Source of the DNA: Chloroflexota bacterium
Lineage (GTDB): Bacteria; Chloroflexota; Limnocylindria; Limnocylindrales; CSP1-4
DNA length: 64,000 nt
Assembly: GCA_003169735.1 (NCBI GenBank)
Contig: PNAP01000042.1
Span: 23,612 to 87,611 of the forward strand
Direction: 5' to 3'
Shown here piece after piece: positions 6,203 through 21,370 of the stretch (its first letter is position 1; every line of letters begins with the position of its first letter). The position numbers and the translations under genes are program-made. Below the pieces are notes generated by a model. The model did not search any database, was not told the DNA's origin, and was given only the letters and a program-made list of their open reading frames with translations.

Positions 6203-6565
6203 GTGCCGAGTCCCGCCCGCATCCGCTCGACCATCGCCACGCTGACGGCGCCCCCCGAGGATCTGCGCGAGGTCGCCGTCTACCACAAGGCCCTCGCCGA
6301 CCCCACGCGTCTGAGCATCCTGCGGCGCCTGGCCGACGCGCCGGGCACGGTGACCGAGCTGATCGACCACGTCGACCTTTCGCAGCCGCTCGTGTCGTGG
6401 CACCTGCGCCGCCTCAAGGCGGCCGGCCTGATCGAGATGCAGCGCAACGGCCGCGAGGTCATCTGCTCGCTGCGCCGCGACACCATCGACGCCTACCGCG
6501 AACGCGAGCGCGCGTTACTGGCGCCGGCTGCCGCCACGCCTGACCGAACCCCCAGCGCCGCCTGA
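6203..6565 (+). CDS. ArsR/SmtB-family transcriptional regulator
   Basis: KALADPTRLSIL..TVTEL..LSQPLVSWHLRRLKAAGLI winged HTH; RBS AGGAG upstream. Confidence 0.9.
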   Translation: MPSPARIRSTIATLTAPPEDLREVAVYHKALADPTRLSILRRLADAPGTVTELIDHVDLSQPLVSWHLRRLKAAGLIEMQRNGREVICSLRRDTIDAYRERERALLAPAAATPDRTPSAA

Positions 6566-6576
6566 GTCGCAACGTC

Positions 6577-7215
6577 ATGCCTGATGGTTCGGTCGTCTCC
6601 GTCGCCACTCGCGATCGGTGGCGCGCGCGGGTGGAGCCGTTCGCCCGCGGCTTCGGACGGCTGGGGCTGACGCCCAACGCGCTGACCGTCCTTGGCTTCG
6701 GCATCTCCGGCGTCGCCGCCATCACGGCCGGTCTCCAATGGTGGATCGCGGCCGGGGTCATCAGCATGGGCGGCGCCGCCTTCGACATGTTCGATGGCGC
6801 CCTTGCCCGCGCGACCGGCACCGCCAGCGTCTTTGGGGCGTTCCTCGACAGCACCCTCGACCGGTGGGGAGAGGCGGTCGTCTACATCGGCATCGTCGCT
6901 GGCGGCTTCGCGGCCGGCGACTCGCTCACCGTCATCCTCGCCGCGCTCGCGATGAGTGCCGCGTTCATGGTCAGCTATGCCCGGGCCAAGGCCGAGAGCC
7001 TTGGCTTCAAGGGCGAAGTCGGCATCGCTCCGCGCCCCGAGCGCATCGTCATCCTCGGCGTCGGCCTCATCCTCGCCGGCATCACCCGCGGTCCGGCCAA
7101 CGGCCCGTGGCTCCAGATCGCCCTGGCGGCCATCGCCGCCCTCAGCAGCATCACCGTCGTCCAGCGGATCCTTCATGTCCGCGCCCAGGCATCACAGTCG
7201 GAGGTCTCTCACTGA
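6577..7215 (+). CDS. pgsA: CDP-alcohol phosphatidyltransferase, phosphatidylinositol-phosphate synthase type
   Basis: [26 protein letters not shown] signature, VSYARAKAE and RPER as in actinobacterial PIP synthases; adjacent to ino1. Confidence 0.85.
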
Positions 7216-7216
7216 C

Positions 7217-8482
7217 ATGGCCAAGAACAGCACCAACGGCCACGCACCGCGCGCCAAGAATGGCAAGATCCGCGTCGCCATCGTCGGCGTCGGCAACTGC
7301 GCCTCGAGCCTCGTCCAGGGCCGGTACTACTACGAGGATGCCAAGAAGGACGACTTCGTCCCAGGCCTGATGCACGTCGAGCTGGGCGGCTACCACGTGC
7401 GTGACATCGAATTCGTGGCCGCCTTCGATATCGACAAGAACAAGGTCGGCAAGGACCTCTCCGAGGCGATCTACACCAAGCCCAACAACACGTACGTCTT
7501 CCAGCAGGTGCCCCATCTCGGCGTGCCGGTCGAGCGCGGCATGACCCACGACGGTCTGGGCAAGTACCTCAGCCAGATCATCGAGAAGGCGCCCGGCCCC
7601 ACGGCCGACATCGTCAAGATCCTCAAGGATCGCGAGGTCGACGTGATGGTCTCGTACCTGCCGGTCGGCTCCGAAGAGGCGACCAAGTGGTACGTCGAGC
7701 AGGCGCTCAAGGCGGGCGTCGGCTTCATCAACTGCATCCCGGTATTCATCGGGCGAGAGCCGTACTGGCAGCGCCGCTTCGCCGAGGCCGGCCTGCCGCT
7801 CATCGGTGACGACATCAAGAGCCAGGTCGGCGCGACGATCAGCCACCGCGTCCTTACTCGCCTGTTCATGGATCGCGGCGTCCGCCTCGACCGCACCTAC
7901 CAGCTCAACTTCGGCGGCAACACCGACTTCCTGAACATGCTCGAGCGCGAGCGCCTCGAGTCCAAGAAGATCTCCAAGACCAACGCCGTCACCTCGATGC
8001 TCGACTACGAGATCGATGCCGACGATATCCACGTCGGCCCGTCGGACCACGTGCCGTGGCTCAAGGACCGAAAGTGGTGCTACATCCGGATGGAGGGCAC
8101 GACGTTCGGCGACGTGCCGCTCAACGTCGAGATGAAGCTCGAGGTCTGGGACAGCCCCAACAGCGCCGGCGTCGTGACCGATGCCATCCGCTGCCTGAAG
8201 CTGGGACTCGATCGTGGGCTCACGGGCACGCTCGTCGCGCCCTCGGCCTACTTCATGAAGAGTCCGCCAACCCAGATCCACGACGACATCGCGTTCAACC
8301 GCGTCGAGGCGTTCATCCGCGGCGACGACAACGAGACGCTCGTCGGCACCGAGGAGATCAAGCCACGCAAGATGCGCCGCATGTCAACGCCGCGAACACG
8401 CATCGTGGCGGACGGCGCGACGGCCGCCGCATCGCAAGCCGCGTCCAAGGCCGCCTCCGCGTCAGCCTCCAAGGCCGGCTGA
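7217..8482 (+). CDS. ino1: myo-inositol-1(3)-phosphate synthase
   Basis: [59 protein letters not shown]. Confidence 0.96.
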
Positions 8483-19075: not shown

Positions 19076-19107
19076 CGCCGACCGGCCTCCAACGGGAAAG
19101 CGATGAG

Positions 19108-20529
19108 GTGACCGGCAGTATAGAGGATGGGGCGTCGGGAACGGGCCGGGCGGGCGTCCTCGATCGCATCCATCCGGCGTGGATCGGCTTGGGACTGGCC
19201 CTGGTCGCGCTTGTCGTCTACATCCTGTGCAACCCGGCGCGGCAGAACTTCTACGACCACTTCGTGTGGCAGGCGGACGCCTGGCTGCACGGGCGCGCGG
19301 CGATCACGTGGCCGGTCTCCGACGGGCCCTTCACCAACGCCTATTTCCAGGACGTCTACCCGTGTTCCGCGACCGGCCCGCCGCCGCTGTGCGACCCGAA
19401 CGGCTACGGGTTGCTGCCGTTCCCGCCGCTGCCGGCGGTCGTGCTGCTGCCGTTCGTGGCGCTCTTCGGGCTGGCGACGAACGCGGCGCTGGTCGCGGCA
19501 GTCCTCGGTGCGATCAATGTCGGGCTGTGTTGGCGGATGGTCACGCGCGTCACCGAGCGTCGCGGCGCGGCCGTCCTCGCCACCGCGTTCTACGGCTTCG
19601 GCACGGTGGCGTGGTACGCGGCGATGCTGGGCAGCACCTGGTTCCTCGCTCACGTCGTGGCCTCGACGTTCCTGTTCATTGGCATCACTGCTGCTTTGGA
19701 CGCCGAGGCGAGGCAGCGGGTTTCCGGCGGCGTTCGACTGATCCTCGGGGTCATCGATCCGCGCCAGTTCCTGGCCGGCCTTCTGTTCGGGATGGCGGCC
19801 ACGGCGCGCCTCACGACCATCCTCGGAGCGCCGTTCTTCGCGTTCGTTGGCGGCGGCGGGAACCTCTGGCGGCGAGCCTTCTCGGCGGCGCTCGGTGCCG
19901 CCATCCCGGTGGCGATGCTGCTCGGGTACAACGTGATCACGACCGGCCATCCCTTCCACCCCGGCTACGACTACCTGGCGCGCACGGAGTACCACCCCAA
20001 AGCCGACTTCTATCACGCTGACTGGGCCATCGAAGACCCCCGCTACGTGATCCAGAACGCGCAGATCCTGTTCCTGTGGCCGCCGCAGACGCCGGCCTCG
20101 TCCGACCCGGTCTGCACCGACCCGAACGACCCGAACTACCACCCGCCTCCGACCGGCCTCGGCATCATCTTCGATCCGACCTGTCCGATCCTCCGCCCCG
20201 ACCCTCTGGGCATGAGCCTGTTGCTGACCAGCCCGGCCTACCTCCTGGCCATCCCGCCACTCATCGGGCTGCGGCGACGGAAGCGTCGCCTGGTGGTCGG
20301 AGCCGGGCTGGCGGTCGGTGCCGTCGCGCTCGTCAACCTGATGCACTTCAGCCAGGGCTGGGTCCAGTTCGGCTATCGGTTCAGCAACGACTTTGCGCCG
20401 TTCGCGATGATCGCCGTGGCACTCGGCATCGCGCGGCTGCGGTCGCGCTGGTTGGCCGTGGCCCTGGTCGTGGCCTCGATCGTCATCAACGCGTGGGGCG
20501 TCTATTGGGGCGTCACGCTGGGCTGGTAA
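19108..20529 (+). CDS. Polytopic membrane protein, probable GT-C-fold glycosyltransferase
   Basis: QADAWLHGR, FPPLPAVVLLPF, ~11 TM helices, GWVQFGYRFSND; beside a GT2 gene. Confidence 0.6.
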   Translation: MTGSIEDGASGTGRAGVLDRIHPAWIGLGLALVALVVYILCNPARQNFYDHFVWQADAWLHGRAAITWPVSDGPFTNAYFQDVYPCSATGPPPLCDPNGYGLLPFPPLPAVVLLPFVALFGLATNAALVAAVLGAINVGLCWRMVTRVTERRGAAVLATAFYGFGTVAWYAAMLGSTWFLAHVVASTFLFIGITAALDAEARQRVSGGVRLILGVIDPRQFLAGLLFGMAATARLTTILGAPFFAFVGGGGNLWRRAFSAALGAAIPVAMLLGYNVITTGHPFHPGYDYLARTEYHPKADFYHADWAIEDPRYVIQNAQILFLWPPQTPASSDPVCTDPNDPNYHPPPTGLGIIFDPTCPILRPDPLGMSLLLTSPAYLLAIPPLIGLRRRKRRLVVGAGLAVGAVALVNLMHFSQGWVQFGYRFSNDFAPFAMIAVALGIARLRSRWLAVALVVASIVINAWGVYWGVTLGW

Positions 20530-20563
20530 TCGAGGCGCAAGGATCGCGCCCTACAATCGGCCA

Positions 20564-21370
20564 GTGTCCTCTCACCGCGTGCCCGCCCTCTCCTACTTCT
20601 TCCCCGCCCACAACGAGGCCGACAACCTCGACCCGCTGGTGGCCGAGGCGCTCGAGGCGCTGCCGCAGCTGGCCGACCGCTTCGAGATCATCTGCGTCGA
20701 TGACGGCAGCCGTGATGGCACCGCCGAGATGGCGGACCGCTTGGCGGCCGAGCACCCCGACGTCGTGCGCGTCGTCCACCACGCCACCAACCGGGGGTAC
20801 GGCGGGGCGTTGCGCAGCGGGTTCGGGGCAGCGCGCTTCGACCTCGTCGCGTTCACCGACGGCGATCGCCAGTTCCGCGTGGCCGATCTCGGCCGCCTGC
20901 TGGACGCGATGGCCACGCCGCTGAGCGCCGGTACCTCGGGCACCTTGTCCGCGTCGGATGTCGTGGTCGGCTATCGGCTGAAGCGCGCCGATCCGCCCGT
21001 CCGACTGGCCTATGCGCGGGTCTATCGTGCCTGCCTGCGACTCTTCTTCGGTCTGCGGCTGCGCGACGTGGATTGCGCATGCAAACTCTTCCGGCGCTCG
21101 GCGTTGACCGACATCCGCGTGGCGTCATCGGGGGCGTTCCTCTCCGCCGAGCTGCTGATCAAGCTCAAGGAGTCGGGCGCGGCGATCAGCGAGGTCGGCG
21201 TGCCGCACTATCCGCGCACGGCTGGGCGAGCATCGGGCGCGGACCCACGCGTCGTGGCGACCGCAGTGCGCGACTTCTGGGTGCTCCGGCTGCGCCTGTG
21301 GGCGAACCGCCGGACGGCGATGCGCCGCGGCGAGCCGGTCCTCGCCGTGGCATCGACCGGTCCGGCCTGA
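20564..21370 (+). CDS. GT2 glycosyltransferase, polyprenol-phosphate mannose synthase-like
   Basis: PAHNEADN, VDDGSRDGT, NRGYGGAL, FTDGDRQF, DVDCACKLFRR. Confidence 0.85.
   Translation: MSSHRVPALSYFFPAHNEADNLDPLVAEALEALPQLADRFEIICVDDGSRDGTAEMADRLAAEHPDVVRVVHHATNRGYGGALRSGFGAARFDLVAFTDGDRQFRVADLGRLLDAMATPLSAGTSGTLSASDVVVGYRLKRADPPVRLAYARVYRACLRLFFGLRLRDVDCACKLFRRSALTDIRVASSGAFLSAELLIKLKESGAAISEVGVPHYPRTAGRASGADPRVVATAVRDFWVLRLRLWANRRTAMRRGEPVLAVASTGPA

Follow-up and report, generated by a model that had tools for sequence, protein, structure and literature searches.

A putative phosphatidylinositol glycolipid operon, widespread in Chloroflexota, and an adjoining block of membrane glycosyltransferase genes in a Limnocylindrales genome

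Gene content of the locus

We analyzed a 64,000-nucleotide stretch of the genome of a soil Chloroflexota bacterium of the order Limnocylindrales (contig PNAP01000042.1), referred to below as the window, and describe in it a predicted operon for phosphatidylinositol (PI) and its first glycolipid derivatives together with a block of membrane glycosyltransferase genes that adjoins it. Because the G+C content is 66-72% throughout the window, raw lists of open reading frames (ORFs) are full of false frames; genes were picked by third-position GC and frame plot, one gene per stretch, and then assigned to Pfam and NCBIfam families.

The operon lies on the plus strand. It opens with a promoter-like TTGACA-17 nt-TAGTAT element that overlaps an AT-rich palindrome (6122-6180, with the palindrome at 6145-6180), followed by a gene for an ArsR/SmtB-family regulator (6203-6565), a phosphatidylinositol phosphate (PIP) synthase of the PgsA1/PIPS type (6577-7215) and ino1, encoding myo-inositol-3-phosphate synthase (7217-8482). 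After refinement of its start, the ino1 ATG falls one base past the PIP synthase stop. Two PatA-like acyltransferase genes come next, copy A on the ino1 side (9674-10786, with the start uncertain between 9674 and 9851) and copy B on the glycosyltransferase side (10792-11775), then a gene for a PHP-family metal-dependent phosphoesterase (11775-12566) whose ATG overlaps the copy B stop codon (TGATG), and finally a gene for a 396-aa PimA-like glycosyltransferase of family GT4 (12595-13785). Between ino1 and copy A, two ORFs occupy the opposite strand (8487-9714). The adjoining block holds a minus-strand gene for a 1768-aa fusion of two GT-C modules (13769-19075), a plus-strand gene for a 473-aa polytopic membrane protein that is a putative GT-C enzyme (19108-20529) and a plus-strand gene for a 268-aa GT2 protein resembling polyprenyl-phosphate sugar synthases (20564-21370). 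The GT4 gene and the convergent 1768-aa gene overlap at their 3′ ends by 17 nt (13769-13785).

Every gene that a sequence-only reading of this DNA had listed at 6203-21370 is present, namely ino1, the PIP synthase, two PatA-like proteins, the PimA-like GT4, the GT2 and three GT-C modules, and to these we add the ArsR gene, the PHP gene and the opposite-strand insertion. The remainder of the window carries dnaA, dnaN, recF, gyrB, gyrA, secA and other core genes; since they share the contig, we conclude that the locus belongs to the chromosomal backbone near the replication origin.

Enzyme assignments and catalytic residues

The PIP synthase matches the CDP-OH_P_transf family at 53.7 bits and, in the Protein Data Bank (PDB), PgsA1 of Mycobacterium tuberculosis (6h53) at an E value of 1.7e-23; it also scores 151.9 bits on the archaeal AIP synthase model NF040950, below the cutoff of 180. 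Its motif D70xxD73G74xxA77R78...G87xxxD91xxxD95 is at least 97% conserved among 61 sequences; this value and the conservation values below come from alignments drawn from related loci (61-77 sequences per gene). The same motif, DxxDGxxAR...GxxxDxxxD, is given for CDP-alcohol phosphotransferases in PMC9246714.

The ino1 product matches PF01658 (Inos-1-P_synth) at 126 bits, against a cutoff of 27, and is 76-92% identical in nearly all related loci. Mycothiol synthesis was considered as the purpose of this gene and ruled out, because no protein in the genome reaches the MshA cutoff (best 101 bits, cutoff 462.5); ino1 is thus left unexplained by mycothiol.

Both acyltransferases belong to PF03279 (Lip_A_acyltrans), copy A at 85 bits and copy B at 65.5 bits, and for each the only PDB sequence match is PatA (5f2t; E values of 3.9e-13 and 1.3e-9, respectively). 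The top-scoring NCBIfam model for both is NF005919, a phosphatidylinositol mannoside (PIM) acyltransferase. In PatA the catalytic His126 and the charge-relay Glu200 are both essential (PMC4792965); in the PDB alignments these positions correspond to H208 and D277 in copy A and to H193 and D264 in copy B, and in alignments of 73 sequences per paralog each of the four residues is at least 97% conserved. These two proteins are the only ones in the genome that match the PatA family.

The GT4 protein matches PimA of Mycobacterium smegmatis (4n9w, 2gej) at 204 bits over residues 1-363 of 396, compared with 82 bits for PimB' of Corynebacterium glutamicum, 66 for MshA and 63 for a BshA-type enzyme, which places it nearer PimA than PimB' or MshA and agrees with the sequence-only description of it as PimA-like. 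Its EX7E motif (E318...E326, ORF numbering) aligns with the PimA ESFGIVLVEAMAAG stretch, and no fewer than 97% of the 77 sequences aligned retain it. Elsewhere in the genome there is a mannose-1-phosphate guanylyltransferase-like gene (295 bits).

The phosphoesterase matches the Pfam families PHP (31.7 bits) and PHP_C (41.1 bits), both over their cutoffs. Among NCBIfam models it scores 78.8 bits on CehA/McbA, 67 on RNase RNM and 49 on 3′,5′-nucleoside bisphosphate phosphatase, all under cutoffs, and its top PDB matches are 9etk, 7ug9 and 2yb1, with only about 70-80 N-terminal residues aligning to the solved proteins. An N-terminal 'DPHIHT' stretch is present, and at least 97% of 75 sequences retain E120, E121, H128, H152, H162, D190, E193, D224 and H226 (ORF numbering), residues that would form the metal sites. 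The subfamily carries no name and is found mostly in Chloroflexota and Dormibacterota.

The ArsR-family gene and its putative operator

The first gene of the operon encodes a protein that matches HTH_5 (54 bits) and NF033788 (79 bits, over the cutoff of 55). Just upstream lies the AT-rich palindrome GTATCAACG...CGTTGATAC at 6145-6180, with 18-nt arms that are 83% complementary. The half-site arrangement ATCAAC-N(14-24)-GTTGAT occurs exactly in 25 of 112 loci, and in 24 of them the ArsR match follows some 30-100 nt downstream; the 25th occurrence (locus L071), which lies within a GT-C gene, we attribute to chance. The palindrome is therefore a probable operator of the ArsR-family regulator, which may repress its own operon from this site.

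Conservation and distribution in Chloroflexota

Two samples bear on gene order. For the first, species-representative genomes were scanned with the GT4 protein and the window proteins were then compared by tblastn, giving 80 Limnocylindria loci. Across them ArsR, PIP synthase, ino1, acyltransferase A, acyltransferase B, PHP and GT4 keep one order on one strand, with matches for PHP in 80, GT4 in 80, acyltransferase B in 79, acyltransferase A in 76, ino1 in 73, ArsR (at the same position) in 64 and PIP synthase in 63; most missing genes fall at contig ends. Recurrence of a single order over 80 related loci puts the clustering far outside what chance would produce. In one Limnocylindrales metagenome-assembled genome (MAG; locus L047) gene order is preserved all the way from ArsR across the GT-C block and on to DciA and RecF, the last of these 76% identical, indicating that the operon sits in its native backbone.

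The nearest loci (best 84-87% identity) are in Chloroflexota MAGs of the class Limnocylindria, and 75 of the 80 have Chloroflexota-type records, many of them Candidatus Limnocylindria or Limnocylindrales, with four labelled as other phyla and one as 'uncultured bacterium'. The sequence-only view of the host as non-actinobacterial is borne out by these records. The four loci labelled as other phyla (L023, L028, L036 and L071) have a Limnocylindria-type operon at 55-70% identity in records titled Zixiibacteriota, Steroidobacteraceae, Binatia and Patescibacteria, and are probably mis-binned or mislabelled contigs.

The second sample took one genome per other Chloroflexota family from the 150 best GT4 matches, which leaves out weaker-matching families, and covered about 20 kb round each GT4 gene in 20 families with profiles built from Limnocylindria sequences. 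At these GT4 loci we found PIP synthase in 18 families, ino1 in 12, two tandem acyltransferases in 12 and a single one in two more, PHP in nine and ArsR in eight, the usual order being ArsR-ino1-acyltransferase-acyltransferase-(PHP)-GT4-PIP synthase. The synteny across relatives that the sequence-only reading had looked to is strong in both samples.

Phylum tallies were made on 401 sampled Chloroflexota genomes, 323 of them high-quality, from 218 genera, and take in up to six genomes flagged unpublished (G145, G038, G227, G272, G344 and G173). A GT4 homolog (E ≤ 1e-40) is present in 290 of the 401 genomes, 232 of the 323 high-quality genomes and 165 of the 218 genera, and is found in none of 24 and none of 25 genomes of two families (f10 and f14). 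PIP synthase (E ≤ 1e-25) is present in 383 of the 401 and 315 of the 323, these two families included. An implied claim that the locus is special to this organism does not stand, as it is phylum-wide; being typical of its phylum, the locus is ordinary for this genome.

In an unrooted, quick-search tree of 50 acyltransferases, all from Chloroflexota, 24 GT4-proximal copies separate from 24 ino1-proximal copies and two single ones on a branch with SH-aLRT 82, from which we conclude that the tandem pair arose before the sampled families diverged.

Three small genomes (1.4-2.1 Mb; G168, G008 and G045, with loci L090, L096 and L101) show a minimal ino1-GT4-PIP synthase arrangement in which the locus lacks acyltransferase and PHP genes, and L101 also shows no PIP synthase nearby. 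Such minimal loci would predict non-acylated PI-hexosides.

The sequence-only reading had also held that a lipid of this kind is little described outside Actinobacteria, and this stands in part. PI is a major polar lipid of one cultured Chloroflexota species according to PMC12453558, and about 50 of the best 120 GT4 homologs, all of them close Chloroflexota relatives, are automatically named 'phosphatidylinositol alpha-mannosyltransferase' (JGI names and one NCBI record). Searches of the accessible literature turned up no paper that deals with PIM genes or PI-mannosides in this phylum. The description of Thermorudis pharmacophila (class Thermomicrobia; IJSEM 2015) is said to include diol-based phosphoinositol mannosides and acyl-mannosides. 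When RNA runs were checked for expression, none was listed with the locus.

The adjoining glycosyltransferase block

The 1768-aa protein consists of two GT-C modules. The N-terminal module (residues 1 to about 470, with about eight helices) matches PIG-U at 32 bits, over the cutoff of 24.5, and weakly resembles Alg6_Alg8 and GT87; an Ala/Pro/Gly-rich low-complexity linker follows. From about residue 575 comes a PMT-type module (PMT 46-48 bits, cutoff 22.7; PMT_4TMC 38.6-40 bits, cutoff 32.4) in which hydropathy shows extra C-terminal helices and, inserted into the first outer loop, about 400 aa of non-hydrophobic sequence. An acidic DE motif, 'HFDEVYH', follows the first helix of the PMT module, and a 'HPHIAK' stretch is also present in the protein. 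Comparison with PDB sequences gave no match at E ≤ 1, and the neighbours in a protein atlas, which serve as a lead only, are GT87, Alg6_Alg8 and PMT_2 proteins.

The 473-aa protein scores 33.6 bits on the LA_3751/LA_3752 putative glycosyltransferase model, under the cutoff of 200, and profile comparison shows no relation between it and the N-terminal module of the fusion protein (probability 3%). In many Limnocylindrales relatives its homolog is fused to a TMEM260-like protein O-mannosyltransferase module in a protein of about 1000 aa (L002:16387-19398, 89 bits); in the window's own genome the 473-aa gene lacks this extension, and a TMEM260-like gene lies on contig C4 instead.

The GT2 protein matches Glycos_transf_2 at 94 bits and the ArnC, dolichyl-P-hexose transferase and PpgS models at 43-51 bits, all under cutoffs. 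Its nearest solved relatives are ArnC (9hwj, 1.8e-10), GtrB (5ekp) and the DPM synthase 5mlz, with E values from 1.8e-10 to 2.7e-8, and hydropathy predicts no hydrophobic segment or membrane helix. Among the 80 loci the C-terminal part of the GT-C fusion is matched in 55, the 473-aa protein in 35 and the GT2 in 33.

Proposed pathway and alternatives

We read 6122-13785 as a probable operon for PI and its first glycolipid derivatives, ancestral and widespread in the phylum, with an adjacent block that more probably serves protein O-mannosylation, and put the probability of this reading as a whole at roughly 72%. It draws on the observed family assignments, catalytic residues, gene order and distribution, and comparative genomics supports its core well.

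In the proposed pathway, the ino1 product would make inositol-3-phosphate, which the PIP synthase would join to CDP-diacylglycerol to give PIP. A phosphatase, proposed to be the PHP protein, whose gene is presumably co-transcribed, would take off the 3-phosphate to yield PI. The PimA-like GT4 would then add a hexose, most likely mannose from GDP-mannose, at the cytoplasmic face, giving mannosyl-PI, and the two PatA-like acyl-CoA acyltransferases would add one or two more acyl chains to form acyl-mannosyl-PI, a division of labour that makes the second paralog a candidate for the second acylation. The operon is probably controlled by the ArsR-family repressor through the palindrome in its own promoter. 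The block at 13769-21370 most likely makes a polyprenyl-phosphate-sugar for use on the outer side of the membrane, where protein O-mannosylation is a more probable role than elongation of the inositol lipid.

Several observations weigh against this reading, and we take first those that concern the enzyme families and then, with the alternatives to which they belong, those that concern single steps. The PIP synthase reaches 147.7 bits on NF045883, below the cutoff of 170, a cutoff that is passed in only one of the 401 Chloroflexota genomes. The ino1 product scores 530 bits on TIGR03450 (mycothiol_INO1) across model positions 1-355 of 355, below the equivalog cutoff of 638, and on NF005919 the acyltransferases score 108.5 bits (copy A) and 97 bits (copy B), both below the cutoff of 209. 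Equivalog-level NCBIfam scores for PIP synthase, ino1 and PatA are thus all under the curated cutoffs, and we conclude that the enzymes are clear but not close relatives of the actinobacterial ones. In both PatA paralogs the Glu200 position is replaced by Asp. Finally, what suggests that the operon is ancestral is its distribution only.

The phosphatase step has the strongest competitor. A pathway through a PIP synthase needs a phosphatase, and for this step we propose PHP. In mycobacteria the dephosphorylation of PIP has been attributed to a 'yet-unidentified phosphatase' (PMC6506517), and in Bacteroides the PIP phosphatase, BT_1525, belongs to the PgpA family (PMC9246714). No PgpA member was found in the assembled genome (92.65% complete), and PHP is the sole phosphatase gene of the operon. 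We rate PHP as a candidate PIP 3-phosphatase at a little under one in two. The competing view, which we consider a serious one though short of even odds, is that PHP is a phosphoesterase of nucleotides or nucleotide sugars, or else a housekeeping enzyme like RNase AM/TrpH, carried along in the operon, and that an unlinked enzyme dephosphorylates PIP. Its nearest characterised relatives, RNase RNM and the bisphosphate phosphatase (7ug9, 2yb1), act on nucleotides, and the gene is absent from the cluster in 11 of the 20 other families. Moreover, in five complete genomes of f10 and f14 that have PIP synthase but no GT4, the PIP synthase gene and the PHP homologs are separated by more than 100 kb, suggesting that PHP travels with the pimA and acyltransferase genes and not with PIP synthase alone. 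A passenger gene would be comparable to the hydrolase genes that flank pimA in mycobacteria. Set against this, PHP stands between acyltransferase B and GT4 in all 80 Limnocylindria loci, with overlapping stop and start codons in the window; compared by eye, it is directly beside GT4 in many of the other families; and its unnamed subfamily is largely confined to two phyla. Counting paralogs, PHP homologs occur in 332 of the 401 genomes, including the GT4-less families (24 of 24 in f10 and 17 of 25 in f14), which also tells against PHP as the PIP phosphatase; because such paralogs are common, the phyletic profile of PHP against GT4 is uninformative.

We next consider the claim, made in the sequence-only reading, that the whole 15 kb is one pathway, in which the GT-C/GT2 block lengthens the inositol glycolipid to a lipomannan-like or glycosylphosphatidylinositol (GPI)-like lipoglycan via polyprenyl-phosphate-mannose. 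The block does adjoin the GT4 gene in Limnocylindrales-type loci, and both the N-terminal module (9.6-18.9 bits) and the 473-aa protein (13-18 bits) weakly resemble GT87 (PF09594), the family of PimE; in addition, the genome has 10 further GT87 proteins over the cutoff, so a lipomannan-type role may still be filled from within it. However, the block adjoins the operon only in Limnocylindrales-type loci, a restriction that also counts against treating the two as one unit: in distant Limnocylindria loci (54-60% identity) the GT-C gene is 6-9 kb off or not in the locus, and in none of the 20 loci of other families is it beside the operon. The GT87 scores of the window's two proteins reach 18-19 bits at best against a cutoff of 25, whereas the confident modules are PMT and PMT_4TMC, and TMEM260-like in relatives. 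Since these best-assigned parts belong to protein O-mannosyltransferase families, a role with protein or surface glycan is favoured over lipomannan synthesis, and the proposed extension to a lipomannan- or GPI-like molecule is left unsupported; we regard it as unlikely.

A further alternative is that GT4 uses another donor or acceptor, adding glucose or N-acetylglucosamine to PI or a sugar to a non-inositol lipid, so that the product would not be a PIM. Donor specificity of GT4 enzymes is not readable from sequence, which counts against naming mannose, and the top NCBIfam matches are generic (EpsE 120, BshA 92 and MshA 84 bits, all far under cutoffs). Yet PimA is matched over the full length 2.5 times as strongly as any other solved GT4, the gene adjoins PIP synthase in 18 of the 20 families and the genome has a gene for GDP-mannose synthesis, and we judge this alternative improbable. 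That the locus is a recent horizontal gain from Actinobacteria or a mis-binned actinobacterial contig we reject as very improbable, because although ino1 scores best on the actinobacterial mycothiol_INO1 model and the nearest solved relatives of the enzymes are mycobacterial, the same contig has dnaA, dnaN, recF, gyrB and gyrA, L047 keeps the order from ArsR to DciA and RecF, G+C content is even across the window and the operon occurs in most sampled Chloroflexota families. The best reading is that the operon is old in the phylum and is probably no recent loan from Actinobacteria.

Comparison with known systems

PIMs, together with the pathway that makes them, are regarded as characteristic of Actinobacteria, and they serve as drug targets in mycobacteria, where pgsA1, patA and pimA lie in that order in a cluster. 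To our knowledge, two steps of the mycobacterial pathway, the dephosphorylation of PIP and the second acylation on inositol, have no known enzyme. Three enzyme families of the Chloroflexota operon recur in the pgsA1-patA-pimA cluster of mycobacteria and corynebacteria, namely the PIP synthase, the PatA-type acyltransferase, whose catalytic His is present here, and the PimA-type GT4, which retains EX7E. The operon differs in having ino1 among its genes, two anciently duplicated tandem PatA paralogs with Asp at the PatA E200 position, PHP between the acyltransferases and pimA, and an ArsR-type regulator in the lead. We regard it as a PIM operon variant of modest novelty that contributes two candidate enzymes.

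In Bacteroides thetaiotaomicron, the cluster BT_1522-BT_1526 as described in PMC9246714 likewise places myo-inositol-3-phosphate synthase and PIP synthase with a dedicated PIP-to-PI phosphatase, a counterpart that in our case is only proposed for PHP. The phosphatase there is of the PgpA family, whereas a PHP protein and no PgpA is found here, and the Bacteroides cluster is described as leading to inositol sphingolipids and not to glycosylated and acylated PI. Solved PHP enzymes of the nucleoside bisphosphate phosphatase and RNase AM type (TrpH/YciV; 2yb1, 7ug9) share PHP and PHP_C with conserved His, Asp and Glu. Their substrate, a ring phosphomonoester next to a second phosphate, would resemble the PIP head group in form; the subfamily described here differs in being lineage-restricted and unnamed, with a context of lipid synthesis and not of RNA or sulfur metabolism.

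The block resembles actinobacterial Ppm1 and Pmt in pairing a helix-less GT2 with a PMT-family GT-C that has the DE motif and PMT_4TMC. Unlike in actinobacterial Pmt, the PMT module is fused behind a GT87/PIG-U-like GT-C and carries the first-loop insert of about 400 aa, and its scores are far under the cutoff of the NCBI Pmt equivalog (31-35 bits against 800).

That a second phylum, a very large one and for the most part uncultured, has this operon would make the pathway much older or more widely spread than has been assumed, and it predicts that in the abundant Chloroflexota of soil and fresh water PI glycolipids make up a major part of the membrane. PHP and the second PatA paralog offer two concrete candidate genes for the missing mycobacterial steps. 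A more far-reaching proposal, which we put forward as speculative and think doubtful, is that the operon supplies both a PHP-family PIP 3-phosphatase and a PatA paralog for the second acyl chain (inositol acylation, Ac2PIM-type), and that acylated PI-mannosides would be ancestral to Chloroflexota and Actinobacteria together.

Other features of the locus and genome

The 1.2-kb insertion on the minus strand between ino1 and acyltransferase A (8487-9714) consists of a 113-aa ORF (8487-8828) and a 333-aa membrane protein (8713-9714) with a weak match to OFeT_1 (iron permease). Neither ORF was found in the 80 related loci, and both junctions are bridged by contigs of four runs from two studies, from which we conclude that this is a real lineage-specific insertion that splits the operon in this organism. 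As none of the 80 loci carries them, the genes at 8487-9714 were ruled out as members of the system. Homologs of the 333-aa protein were found in three of 25 relatives, elsewhere in their genomes. The two ORFs overlap by 116 nt and could represent a frameshift within one gene.

Another contig of the genome (C106:22214-32326; L116, L117) carries two PMT_2 genes, two GT87 genes, an ArnC/DPM1-like GT2, a FemAB-type GNAT, a GT4 and a PIG-L (LmbE) deacetylase. The combination of GT4, PIG-L deacetylase and GT-C recalls in form the first steps of GPI synthesis, with no specific family assignment, and in a bolder extension of the speculative proposal above this cluster would build a GPI-like glucosaminyl-PI glycolipid.

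Beyond the block, a 783-aa protein with no Pfam family is encoded on the minus strand at 21921-24272, between a bifunctional-nuclease gene and dciA, and has homologs in six of the 80 related loci.

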